Assembly (NCBI GenBank): GCA_951406725.2
Contig: OX597830.1
Coordinates: 44,392,001-44,456,000, forward strand
Source of the DNA: Octopus vulgaris
Taxonomy: Eukaryota
Reading direction: 5' to 3'
DNA length: 64,000 bases
Within the stretch, counting starts at the first letter, position 1; each line of letters begins with the position of its first letter. The position numbers and the translations under genes were made by a program. The notes under the pieces were generated by a model that worked only from the letters and a program-made list of their open reading frames with translations, had not been told where the DNA came from and ran no database searches. Shown piece after piece: positions 12,382-39,907 of this stretch.

Positions 12382-12870
12382 TGTATGTATGTACGTACGT
12401 ATGTATGTATGTATGTATGTATGTATGTATCTATAAATCTCCCTTTGCCTACATATATATATCTGTGTGTGTGTGTGTTTATGTCTAAGCATATAGACAG
12501 ATACATATATGTGTGTGATTCTGTATACCTTGCATCTGTAGTATGTATACAATAAGCACACACACAATAAACACACACACACACACACTCATACATGAGT
12601 ATCATTTACGAGCATGTATAACCTTAATCACTTGTCCACTTATGCACATGTACACACATGTACACAGCATGCAAACATATTTGTTGTCAGCTCTAGGCTG
12701 GAGTCAATCATTAAGTGAGCTGTCCTCTTTTACACTGACGACATTGAGGCTTGCTTGCATCTACACGTATCAACAGCTTCTAAATCAATATAACTAAGGA
12801 TTTACACACACACACACACACACATTATAGATAGATGCAGAAATATATATGTTTGTGTGTGTATATATAT

Positions 12871-13270
12871 ATATAAACAATATGAAAGATCACTATGTGG
12901 ATTCCTTGTATGCTAAAAATAGATGTTAACTGCCTTACCTTTAAATCAGTGTTCTCATCTTAGTAAGGCGCTAGATGTTTACGAGCTGGACAAGTGAAAA
13001 GAAATAAACATAGCACTTAATTCCATTCCTTAAGGTTTCGACATGAACAATTTAATAATTTTTTGTGTCTCTTCAGTGAAATTGGGGCCAACACAATGGC
13101 AGCCAATTATTGAATTGTTCATGTCGGAAACTTAAGGTATGGAATTAAGTGCTATGCTCGAAAACATCTAGCATCTTGCTAATTTGAGAACACAGGTTTA
13201 GTGGTAAGAGGGTTTGACGTCTATTTCTAGCATACAAGGGATCCACATAGGGATCTCTCATTGTTTATAT
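12871..13270. repeat. Imperfect long inverted repeat (Penelope pseudo-LTR-like) containing a type I hammerhead motif (13019-13083, -)
   Basis: Left and right arms are reverse-complementary. The - strand reads AATTTCA-CTGAAGA-GACA...TGTC-GAAA-CCTTAAGG-AA-TGGAATT. Confidence 0.7.
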
Positions 13271-13379
13271 TTAAGTAGAATTTACGATCCTCAGACATTT
13301 TTAAGTATGTTCACCATTAGTTGAAATTGATATTATATAATAATATTATTTAATAATATTAATTTCTACTCATATTATA

Positions 13380-13444
<65 letters not shown>

Positions 13445-13449
13445 AAATA

Positions 13450-13669
13450 TAAGGTTGGTGCATAATTATTGCAACTTTTGTTCAATAAATTTTATTCAAC
13501 AAAAACATCTTTAAATGGTTATTCTAATCGGCTGCCAAGCAGATGGGAAGCAGTAATTGAAGTAGATGGTGAATATGCTTCGGAATAATCATTTAAAGAT
13601 GTTTTTGTTAAATGTTATTGTTTTTGTTGAATAAAATTTATTGAAAAACTGCAATAATTATGCACCAAC

Positions 13670-13673
<4 letters not shown>
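13450..13673 (+). mobile_element. mariner-derived MITE (second copy)
   Basis: Same TIRs as 10412, TA flanks. Encodes RLPSRWEAVIEVDGEYASE*. Confidence 0.85.
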
Positions 13674-13713
<40 letters not shown>

Positions 13714-13767
13714 TGGTATATATATATATATATATATATATATGGATGGATGTATAAAGTGTACATC

Positions 13768-14215: not shown

Positions 14216-15232
14216 CATCATCATCATCATTGTTTAATGTCCGTTTTCCATGCTAGCATGGGTTGGACGGTTCAACCACTGTCTGGGAAGCCAGGAGGCT
14301 GCACCAGGCTCCAGTCTGATCTGGCAGTGTTTCTGCAGCTGGATGCCTTTCCTAACACCAACCACTCCGTGAGTGTAGTGGGTGCTTTTTACGTGCCACC
14401 GGCACAGGTATCACAACTACAATTTCCATTTGATTTTTATTTTGATGTTGATGTACTTGACTCAATAGTTCTCCTCAAGCATAGCAGGTTGCCCTACGAT
14501 CCAAGGTAGGCACAGCAGGCTGTCCTGTGAGCCATGAACTCACTTCATTTGTTGGGTCTTCGCAATCACAGCATATCTTCAGAGGACTCGGTCTTTTGTC
14601 ATTAACTCTGTGAGGCCCAATGTTCGAAGGTCATACTTGACCACCTCATCCCATGTCTTCCTGGGTCAACCTCTACCCCGGATTCCTTCAACTGTTTGGG
14701 AGTGGCACTTCTTCACACATCTCTCCTCATCCATCCATAGTACATGACCATACTGCCTCAAATGTCTCTCCTGCATGCCACATCCAATGCTTCTTATGTC
14801 CAACATTTCTCTCAGGGCACTTACACTCTGTCGTGCATGCACAGTGACATTACACATCCAGCGGATCATGCTAGTTTAATTTCTTTCGAGCATACACATG
14901 TCCTTCACAGTCACGGCCCATGTTTTACTGCCATGAAGCATGGCAGTTCACACAAATGCGTTGTACAATCTACCTTTCACTCTGAGTGAGAGACCCTTTG
15001 TTGCCTGTAGGGGAAGAAGCTTTCTAAACTTTGCCCAGGCTATTCTTATTCTAGTGGTAACACTCTCTGAGCATCCACCCCCACTACTAACTTGGTCACC
15101 TAGGTAGCAGAGGCTATCAACAACTTCTAGTTTCTTCCCCTGGAGTGTGATGGAATCTGTTTTCTGAGTATCTGTGGTGTCTATTGCCCCTGTGCATCTG
15201 CCACACAGGAAAGCTATCTTCTCGGTTAATTT
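14216..15232 (-). mobile_element. RTE-clade LINE, 3' half with (GAT)n tail
   Basis: KLTEKIAFLCGRC...LEVVDSLCYLGDQVSSGGGCSESVTTRIRIAWAKFRKLLP and MIRWMCNV, followed by 3' UTR and tail. Confidence 0.85.
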
Positions 15233-15254
15233 TAATATATATATATATATATAT

Positions 15255-15256
<2 letters not shown>

Positions 15257-15286
<30 letters not shown>

Positions 15287-15432
15287 TTAGCGTCCGTTTT
15301 CCATGCTAGCATGGGTTGGACGGTTTAACTGGGGTCTGTGAAGCCAGAAGGCTTCATCAGGCCCAGTCAGATTTGGCAGTGTTTCTACGGCTGGATGCCC
15401 TTCCTAACGCCAACCACTCCGCGAGTGTAGTA
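15257..15432 (-). mobile_element. 5'-truncated RTE 3' end, (GAT)n tail
   Basis: Similar to 14216-14405 and inverted relative to 18740-18921. Confidence 0.75.
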
Positions 15433-15744
15433 GGTAGAAAAATGGAGGAGAAAAAGATGTTGCATCGAAATTAGATTTAATACAAAATAGGATTCAATAC
15501 ATATGTACGTTTCAAAGGACAATGCAAATATGTAAGAAAAAATTATAATCATAGTAATTATAATTAAATTTATGCATTGTCATTCTCGACTTGAAAGCCC
15601 CCGCATTACTGGAAAACCCATGCAACTGGCCGAAGAGCACCCAGCATCCCAAATCCGCTGCAATACCTACAACCCTCAATAAAATGTTGCAGTGCGAAAC
15701 AACTGCCCCAAACTACCGGAGTCACTCCTGTTGCTTATTTTTTA

Positions 15745-15778
<34 letters not shown>

Positions 15779-15980
15779 TGTACACACGTATATATATTTA
15801 TATATGCATGTATATATACATGTAGATGAAGGTACGTACATATATGTTTGTATGTATGCATATATTTTATTTATTACACTATTGTATGACTGAGCGCCTT
15901 CGCGTCGATTCGATTCGTTTGGTTTCGTTTGGTTTCTTCTTCTTCTCTAAGCTGGTTTATATATATATATATATATATAC

Positions 15981-16042
<62 letters not shown>

Positions 16043-17610
16043 TATATACACAAAAACACATACATAAATACATACGCACAATTGTATATACATACACACA
16101 ATATCATTGTAACTCAATTTCTTTGTAGATGACCTGAAGATTTATGCTAAAAGTGTGAACCATGCTTAAAACCAACTGGAATTAATTCAATCCTTTTCAG
16201 CTGCTATTGCTAGACAGCCGTTCATCCGACCTTTCAACAGGTCTTGTTTTTAATTTTGTTGGGTTTCTAGCAAGCTCCTCATCTGGATATCCAGGTGGGG
16301 TTGCCAGTTTAGTTGCTGACAACCCAACCATGCAACTGGTTGTACTGGATTCCATGTTACCAGCCACAGTTATGAGAGCCTTGTAAGTGACCTGACATAC
16401 AGACAGACATACATAAATACATACATATATATTTGCATACTTACAAACACATACATACAGACATACATACATGCATACATACAGACATACATACATATAT
16501 ACATGCATACACACATACATGCATACACACATAATGTATGCATACATACATACGTACATACATACATACATACATACATACATGCATGCATGCATACATA
16601 CATACATGCATGCATCCATCCATCCATACATATATATTTGCATGCTTACAAACACATACATACAAACATACACACACACACATACATATATACATGCATA
16701 CATAAATACATATGCACATACATGCAGATTCATACATGCATGCAAACACACATACATACACATATATACACACATACATATGCACCACCAGTTTTAGACG
16801 TATCAGTTTTCCGATTTAGTGTTTTGTCTGACATTTGAAATCAGGATAAAAATTTTTTTAAATATTTGAAACGAACTCAAAAAAAAAAAAAAGAAACAGG
16901 ATAGAAATTGATTGCTGCATAACAAAATATGATAGCAGAGTGCGTAAAGTAATACTTATGTTGACCGATTTCTCAATCACAACGTGACTAACATCTCAGG
17001 TGTGGCTGACGATATGAAATTACGCCAGGTGTGTCCATTGTTCTAGTTAATTTAAGAAAAGTGATCCTCTCTAAAATTAACGATGATTATCTTGTTGCTG
17101 GTGGTGGTGGTGTTTTGTGTGTGTGTGTGTGTATTTGATATTGTTGGTACTGTTATTGTTGTTTCCCTCTCTTCCAGTTATCTGATCAAATGGCTGAAAT
17201 GCAGCCACACATATATTGTCCCTGATATACATATGACTGCATCAAGCTGACACCATAGAGGCCACGTCTACCTCTTGTGCTATCTCTAGTGAACATTTAA
17301 TTCTAGTGAGTTCTAATTTTAGATGTTGTTGTCCAGCTCCCAGATCATCTCTAATCCAGAAATCATTTGCTTAAAGACGTTTTATCCATGACCATCCTGT
17401 CTTTTGGCTATGAGTAATGTTGAAATTACATTATCTACAATAGCCTTTCTTTCTTATAACAGTAAGGCGTGAGCTGAGTGAGGTTTAGCTGCTTTTTCTA
17501 TCGGGTCTTCACGATAGCCAGTTGACAGCTTTGCAGTAATTGTTGCGGTTCTCTATGTTCTGAGATCAAATCCAGCTGAAGTCAAATTCTTTCCGGGTCA
17601 ATAGATAAAC

Positions 17611-18370
17611 TACTAGATAGAAATAACTACAGGGTCATCAAACTGCTGGATCAGGCGACGAAGGTCCCAGAGAGGGTCACAGCCCATCCCACCAGGGAGA
17701 GGATTTGCCTAGATGAGATGCAGTTCGGTTCTGTGCCAGGTAGAAGCACCACCGATGCTACATTCCTGCTCCGACAACTGCAGGAGAAGCACCTAGCCAA
17801 AGACAAACCCCCGCCACATAGCCTCTGTGGACTCGGAGAAAGCCCCCGACAGGGTCCCCCGATCCCCCATCCGGTGGTCGATGCGGAAACCGGAGATTGA
17901 CGAATGGCCAACAAGGACTGTACAGGCCCTATACAGAGAGGCCATCAGCAAGGTCAGAATTGGCAACGAACACAGTGAAGAACTCCGGGCAGAAGCAGGT
18001 GCACACCAAGGCCCAGCCCCCAGTCCCCCCCATTCATCACAGTCCTCCAGGCAACAACAGAGGAACTCAAAACAGGCCGCCCCCGGGAGCTCCCCCACGC
18101 CGACGACCTGGCCCCCATAGCAGAATTACCACCGGAACTAGAAAAGAAATCTCGGGCGCGGAAGCAAGGGCTAGAATCAAAAGGGCCCCAGAGTAAACGT
18201 AGCAAAGACCAAAGTTATAGCAAGCAGAAAGGCGAACTCAGTACACACACCCTCGGGCAGGTGGCCCGGCCCGATCTGCAGGAAAGGCGCAGGTAGAAAC
18301 TCCACAAGATGCACCCAGTGCAAGCCACGGACGCACAAGAGGTGCCGCAACATCAAAGGGAAACCAACCG

Positions 18371-18371
<1 letters not shown>
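17611..18371 (+). mobile_element. RTE-clade LINE reverse-transcriptase fragment, T>C hypermutated
   Basis: RT motifs are recognisable but systematically altered: QFGSVPGRSTTDA, ASVDSEKAPDRV, GAHQGPAPSP, ELPHADDL. Confidence 0.9.
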
Positions 18372-18416
<45 letters not shown>

Positions 18417-18424
18417 AGTAACCA

Positions 18425-18618
18425 CATGTGATTGTTGGTGATTTTTTTCCCTCCATCTTCTTTTCTATTGGATTTTTCTCTGTTTCTGAAGAAGAGCTTT
18501 TCTTGAAACATAAAACCACCTTTCTTTCCTTCCTTGAGCATCTGCTAATACTTTACATGTTCCACGTCCTTGTGTTGTTGTTGTTTACTGTTTGTTCTTC
18601 ATTTTTTAGGGGTTTTAC

Positions 18619-18620
<2 letters not shown>
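18425..18620 (+). mobile_element. Short Penelope-like repeat with minimal hammerhead motif (18482-18516)
   Basis: GTTT-CTGAAGA-A-GAGC-TTT-TCTT-GAAA-CA-TA-AAAC. Confidence 0.6.
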
Positions 18621-39781: not shown

Positions 39782-39907
39782 TATATAGAAGGAGCTTCTA
39801 CAGGACTAGAACTGTTTCATTCAAGAGAAATCTTCAGGAAGCTTCCTGAAGATTTCTCTTGAATGAAACAGTTCTAGTCCTGTAGAAGCTCCTTCTATAT
39901 AATAAAT
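39776..39907. repeat. Perfect 132-bp spacerless palindrome
   Basis: Centred on AAGCTT (39839-39844). Arms contain CTGAAGA...GAAAC...GTC. Confidence 0.9.

Follow-up and report, generated by a model that had tools for sequence, protein, structure and literature searches.

The question raised by this locus was how one copy of a retroelement terminal repeat in the genome of Octopus vulgaris came to carry C at many positions at which its relatives carry T, and whether this change arose in RNA or in DNA. The window, that is, the whole stretch of 64,000 nucleotides that was analysed (G000:C17:44392001-44456000), belongs to a genome of 2.8 Gb in 227 contigs, rich in (TA)n.

A C-rich hammerhead motif was found at 15627-15710 exactly as a first-pass annotation of the window had written it, and the 120 nt at 15601-15720 contained 18 T and 41 C, among the T-poorest complex segments outside the main T>C patch at 17612-18372. 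When the core T was restored, the motif pattern retrieved 49 genomic copies, and the reversed-pattern control retrieved 0. The motif lay in a terminal repeat (pLTR-like) of a Penelope-like family (15588-15745, plus strand), which was truncated on its left side and collinear with positions 2081-2245 of an unedited tandem unit on contig C29 (L123) and with sequence at 746 kb on C13. From 15585 to about 15745 (160 columns, 61 T), comparison with a consensus of 66 distinct paralog alignments gave 26 T>C, 1 A>G, and 1 A>C; the paralogs differed from their own consensus by a mean of 0.97 T>C each, and each of 72 paralog copies carried C at 3 or fewer of those 26 sites. Site 15713, which was C in 12 of the 72 paralogs, may be inherited, and site 15587 was ambiguous, falling in a junction overlap of 2-3 bases with the next element, so that 24 of the 26 sites were clean. 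These results confirmed that the T>C patch in the terminal repeat is real and not a product of chance. The annotation had placed same-strand T>C changes at 15590-15725, and this was borne out: the edited stretch measured 15590-15728, ending approximately 10 nt before the end of the repeat, 26 of 28 substitutions were T>C, and in the paralog consensus and count of substitution classes that it had proposed as a check the paralogs carried T at these sites, which left the claim standing.

The broken motif (15626-15711, plus strand) was resolved by comparison with the family copies and by comparing paralog and window folds. It consists of stem I (15626-15629/15708-15711), the core (15630-15636), a long, branched stem II (15637-15695), GAAA (15696-15699), helix III with a palindromic loop (15700-15705), and the cleavage triplet (15705-15707). 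In the family, the core was CTGAAGA in 46 and CTGATGA in 17 of 67 copies (CTGA(A/T)GA, 63/67), CGAAA or TGAAA was present in 69 of 72, and the triplet was GTA in 69 of 72. The loop of helix III was CAATTG in 53 of 72 copies and CGATCG in 4 of 72, a double change that preserved the palindrome, and stem II was GCAC/GTGC (51 and 52 copies) or, in a subgroup, GTAC/GTAC (11 and 8 copies); these counts are of related copies and not of independent events. The unedited family thus has the type I core with CUGANGA, GAAA, and an NUH triplet, together with covariation in three helices, and is from its sequence a type I hammerhead motif with predicted self-cleavage. In the window copy, neither core nor triplet was intact: the core was CCGAAGA (U4>C in the usual core numbering), the loop was AACT with loss of the palindrome, and the triplet GCC arose from one T>C and an unrelated A>C at 15707. 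The annotation had proposed that reversion of three Cs would give a canonical type I hammerhead; a real type I motif does exist in the unedited family, but its triplet is GUA and not the GUC that had been supposed, and stem I, given as TGG/CCA, is TTGG/CCAA in the family, with a fourth T>C of the window motif at 15626. Stems I and II formed in the predicted fold of one of two paralogs (L062) and were absent in that of the other (L045). Rfam gave no hammerhead among 150 listed of 214 matches of the window, nor among 100 matches at E up to 10 for three unedited loci and the locus in the window, which may be due to the length of the insert in helix II. On the edited strand the ribozyme is antisense, so that its destruction was incidental.

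The two patches were not independent. The region 15585-18372 was collinear with unedited units on C29 (L123) and C13, in the order of terminal repeat, spacer, and LINE fragment, and parts of the unit were also dispersed on C1, C5, C7, C9, and C13. The spacer (15746-17611, plus strand) is made up of captured sequence and microsatellites and begins with a (TA)n run (15746-15818), which, from repeat content and from the ends of other copies, stands at the usual terminus of the Penelope-like family. The LINE reverse-transcriptase fragment (17612-18372, plus strand), identified by consensus comparison and by translation of an unedited copy, is presumably RTE-type, judging from its motifs, and would be the 5' end of a minus-strand RNA copy; a second (TA)n run (18374-18417) closes the composite on the right. 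In the LINE fragment, 75 of 81 substitutions from the consensus were T>C (169 T), and against nine unit copies 77 of 168 T were changed to C. In the terminal repeat, 26 of 56 T were changed to C against the unit copies, so that approximately 45% of T had become C in both patches, whereas in the spacer only 5 of 366 T were changed, with 20 other substitutions, over four alignable blocks with the microsatellite blocks left out (Fisher p = 4e-21, spacer versus terminal repeat). In the two patches pooled, 101 of 109 substitutions were A>G on one strand when read from the minus strand. Since the nearest unit copies differed by only 1.5-3.5% apart from T>C, the event was fairly recent. As judged from sequence, both patches belong to one copied composite, within which the process kept to the borders of the elements. 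The annotation had described an unrelated element, hit approximately 2 kb from the main patch, and a spared T-rich region at 18425-18620. The same directional process on the same strand and the existence of both edited and spared parts were upheld, but the elements are parts of a single composite, and 18425-18620 lies outside it, the informative spared region being 15746-17611. A 96-nt T-rich piece at 15860-15955, between two (TA)n runs in the composite, was absent from the unit copies compared and is perhaps a later insertion.

No further edited copy was found among 79 other terminal-repeat alignments, 38 other LINE alignments, and the other unit parts compared, nor was clustered A>G found among the 100 matches listed of 130. 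One forced-edit LINE pattern retrieved only the window and another retrieved nothing; both are weak tests, since a match demands particular edits in an otherwise unchanged stretch of 33-34 nt. In one copy on C29, a run of 11 T>C was rejected as editing and proved to be a TA/CA microsatellite. Within reach of the searches made, the edited copy has not multiplied.

The bases adjoining the changed sites carried a signature. With the patches pooled, minus-strand A preceded by a 5' G was edited at 8 of 37 sites versus 88 of 177 otherwise (p = 0.002), A with 5' A or U at 68 of 123 versus 28 of 91 (p = 0.0005), and A followed by a 3' G at 35 of 55 versus 61 of 159 (p = 0.002); in the hammerhead patch alone the figures (5' G, 1/5; 3' G, 9/12) were too small for a context test. 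The edits, read as A>G, avoid 5' G and favour 3' G and are in this respect ADAR-like. Avoidance of 5' G with preference for 5' U or A and 3' G is described across most metazoans in PMC9989829. For invertebrate hyper-editing, octopus included, PMC5625713 reports a preference for 3' A and a weak one for 3' G; the two sources agree on 5' G, and with the 3' G excess seen at this locus the match to the octopus pattern of the latter is imperfect.

The edited (minus) strand is also the strand of the Penelope reverse-transcriptase frame in the unedited unit. In L123, the terminal repeat stands head-to-head with this RT-like frame, which lies on the opposite (minus) strand. The putative Penelope RT frame was RT-like by Atlas features with a score of 0.95; its three pieces gave neither a Pfam family nor a PDB match, no C-terminal GIY-YIG endonuclease could be made out in the broken downstream frames of L123, and the motifs of the frame are probably those of Penelope/Neptune. 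Copies of the family shared this end point, which was followed in some by (TA)n and in others by a common tail, and a second, inverted (head-to-head) copy was present within 3 kb at 11 of 30 loci; as the family often occurs in such inverted pairs, fold-back RNA is expected. Hammerhead-bearing terminal repeats, a tandem and inverted layout, a tail, and microsatellite targets were all found. By these repeats and this layout the element would be classed as Penelope-like, with a putative clade, and from the layout of the unedited unit the edited repeat is the inverted copy that stands at the element's 5' end. Inverted 5' copies of Penelope-like elements are described in PMC8557442; further background is given in PMC11167929 and in bioRxiv 10.64898/2026.07.22.740005, the latter without mention of ADAR. 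Large tandem arrays of a unit of approximately 9 kb (L123 being an example), made of the Penelope-like element and captured sequence, were observed on C29 at 27.6-27.9, 29.5-29.7, and 19.4-19.7 Mb; some of the array units carry a LINE insertion, and pieces are dispersed to C1, C5, C7, C9, C13, and C17.

The reading that we prefer, with a probability of roughly 0.8, is that a single minus-strand RNA was hyperedited by ADAR where it was paired and was then reverse-transcribed and inserted here once; in it we infer the RNA, its pairing partners, the enzyme, and the reverse transcriptase as follows. A read-through transcript on the sense strand of Penelope would carry the antisense LINE, the spacer, and the inverted terminal repeat. 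The inverted repeat would pair with a sense terminal repeat, at the other end of the element or in another copy, and the antisense LINE with sense LINE RNA, and ADAR would convert approximately 45% of the paired A to I. The reverse transcriptase of a retroelement, probably of the Penelope type, would read I as G, and the cDNA would be inserted, with (TA)n runs on either side, in a cell of the germline or the early embryo, the Penelope body either never having been copied or having later been replaced by the terminus of a second family. The annotation had already suggested editing of the double-stranded parts of one minus-strand RNA, and the one-strand pattern of edited and spared parts agreed with it; the duplex is the conjectural part, in that neither edited segment had an inverted partner in the 94 kb searched around the locus and no full-length inverted partner was present in the stretches of C29 and C13 compared. 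The partner may have lain in the lost Penelope body or at a more distant site, or may have been another molecule.

At the left junction, the edited arm was joined over 2-3 shared bases to the terminus of the second family, which occupies the place of the Penelope body in the unedited units, and the join is either a template switch in reverse transcription or a later insertion with deletion. The neighbour (15434-15587, minus strand) is an unedited terminal repeat of a second hammerhead-bearing family, truncated at its CUGAUGA core, with 0 T>C at 44 T; a full hammerhead motif was present at 17 of 29 paralog loci of this family and inverted pairs at 9 of 29. Its identification as the arm of a MITE was rejected in favour of this second hammerhead terminal repeat. 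The motif of the second family has a long helix II and a palindromic helix III. Short hammerhead-like motifs were also observed in the window at 18486 (plus; inside 18425-18620), 4698 (plus), 34777 (plus), and 34672 (minus), the last two forming an opposite-strand pair approximately 100 nt apart. A near-perfect inverted repeat of 80 nt was observed at 39802-39881, and 12868-13273 and 13381-13743 are self-inverted and may be fold-back elements (region 13009-13743).

At the right end, the edited LINE stopped within 12 nt, in LINE coordinates, of the 5' end of a resident inverted LINE (18372 versus 15232); the two ends overlap by approximately 12 nt in these coordinates, each adjoins (TA)n, and they belong to different LINE copies. 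The resident LINE (14220-15232, minus strand) is an older, unedited copy, 72-92% like the donor per 100 nt, with 12 T>C, 16 A>G, 24 C>T, and 22 G>A, and is too diverged to be the same element as the edited LINE. The coincidence of the ends may be due to chance, for which our rough guess is a few percent. As to a target-site duplication or an empty site, both ends of the composite sit in (TA)n runs. A simple inversion of 15236-18373 splitting one LINE was not favoured, the left part being 83-85% like the donor and the edited part 98% apart from T>C. Twin priming was rejected, as it predicts A>G on the LINE sense strand, opposite to what was observed, and the LINE tail at 15255-15436 was rejected as the donor's own tail, its nearest copy lying elsewhere (95%).

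Because the LINE ends coincide within 12 nt, it is conceivable, though we give it only a small chance, that the edited RNA was written into the germline at a site chosen by homology, the antisense LINE part pairing with the resident inverted LINE, anchoring the insertion, and stopping the cDNA at the edge of homology. The same coincidence, together with the (TA)n runs at both ends of the region, would suit an overwrite in place, in which an unedited composite already stood here and was repaired or converted on the template of an edited RNA, which came from this locus or from a paralog, the resident inverted LINE perhaps serving as a homologous anchor. This is unlikely in our estimation: the resident LINE spans only sequence that the edited copy lacks, which means that it could not be the pairing partner, and is itself unedited, and the unit was dispersed to C1, C5, C7, C9, and C13, for which plain transposition is enough.

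We consider hypermutation at the level of DNA improbable, whether an error-prone polymerase placed G opposite T or A was deaminated in an RNA:DNA hybrid or in single-stranded DNA, as the element was inserted or a break at (TA)n was repaired. Both patches end at (TA)n runs, and the 5' A/T bias also fits polymerase eta, which is expected to show such a bias. The sparing of the T-rich spacer of 1.9 kb between the patches, however, largely refutes it, and the agreement of the patch borders with element borders, the 3' G excess, the 45% rate with almost no other change, and the (TA)n junction being a trait of the family also stand against it.

A sequencing or assembly artefact beside the (TA)n, which the annotation had held equally compatible with its observation, is very improbable. 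Adjacency to (TA)n did not hold up as a sign of artefact and was rejected as a cause, (TA)n being the normal end of the terminal repeat of this family. In the read data, a check that the annotation had also proposed and that was made over the hammerhead patch at 15567-15745, a separately assembled read set (run X1) contained a 198-nt contig with a depth of 52.3 and 0 differences from 15567-15745 over 179 nt. Runs X5, X6, and X2 had a depth of 0 at 15594-15657, which is compatible with an empty site or a T allele, no T-bearing paralog having been placed there in any run; the C version was therefore seen in one of four runs, and X1, by our guess a DNA run, may come from the very sample that was used for the assembly. 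The clean state of 71 paralogs, many with the same (TA)n junction, the neighbour bias, and the element-bounded borders likewise argue against an artefact. Least probable of all is a diverged C-rich subfamily of the terminal repeat, as hinted at by the C in some paralogs at 15713, since no paralog shared more than three of the sites, other substitutions numbered only 2 in 160, and of 62 family copies matching a T/C-tolerant pattern only the window copy carried the C letters, which refutes it in this assembly within reach of the searches.

If ADAR editing of a paired RNA followed by reverse transcription is the correct reading, the locus is a record in DNA of RNA editing, and from this one copy it can be read where a retroelement transcript was double-stranded, in a cell whose DNA was handed on. 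ADAR would then have acted on the RNA of retroelements in the germline or in the early embryo. Genome scans could test how often non-LTR elements of invertebrates are mutated and inactivated by ADAR, and which RNA is in fact copied by Penelope elements; being rare in the family (1/62), the locus alone is no sign of a general defence. Were the insertion guided by homology as well, A-to-I edits would be a heritable, homology-guided source of clustered mutations in an animal with very high ADAR activity. We found no paper on edited RNA fixed in an animal genome via Penelope or a LINE in a search outside which most subscription journals lay.

Several known systems resemble parts of this locus. In the terminal repeats of Penelope-like elements, PMC4209133 describes type I hammerheads with a short palindromic helix III in metazoans, and in PMC4209133 and PMC8557442, as here, a type I motif lies in the terminal repeat with a short helix III and palindromic loop, opposite-strand pairs stand 100-700 bp apart, and inverted 5' copies, a tail extension, and microsatellite targets are reported. 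Helix II is 4-8 bp in the known hammerhead pLTRs described there, whereas the helix II domain here is approximately 59 nt, and the window copy is broken at core, loop, and triplet. ADAR hyper-editing of double-stranded repeat RNA (PMC5625713, PMC9989829) likewise gives dense A>G clusters in repeats with avoidance of 5' G, octopus being among the highest rates; those edits are in RNA only and those described here are in DNA, and the 3' G excess fits PMC9989829 and not the invertebrate cluster of PMC5625713. DNA editing by APOBEC, for which PMC4866542 screened 123 genomes and reported G>A editing in LTR elements with 19 invertebrates at noise level, also leaves hypermutated retroelement copies in genomes that are detected against a family consensus. 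It acts, however, as G>A on cDNA of LTR elements in vertebrates, and that screen covered LTR elements and DNA transposons, in contrast to the T>C in a Penelope/LINE composite found here. A mouse endogenous provirus with an A>G excess without ADAR context is described in PMC12548423. In avian retroviruses, ADAR-type A-to-G hypermutation (RAV-1, Felder 1994; avian leukosis virus, Hajjar and Linial 1995, as cited in PMC8586724) gives, as here, clusters of A>G on one strand of an RNA, which reverse transcription then fixes in DNA. Fixation of ADAR edits is thus known for retroviruses, and here it would extend to a non-viral Penelope/LINE composite in an invertebrate chromosome, a single copy of which contains both edited and spared blocks.
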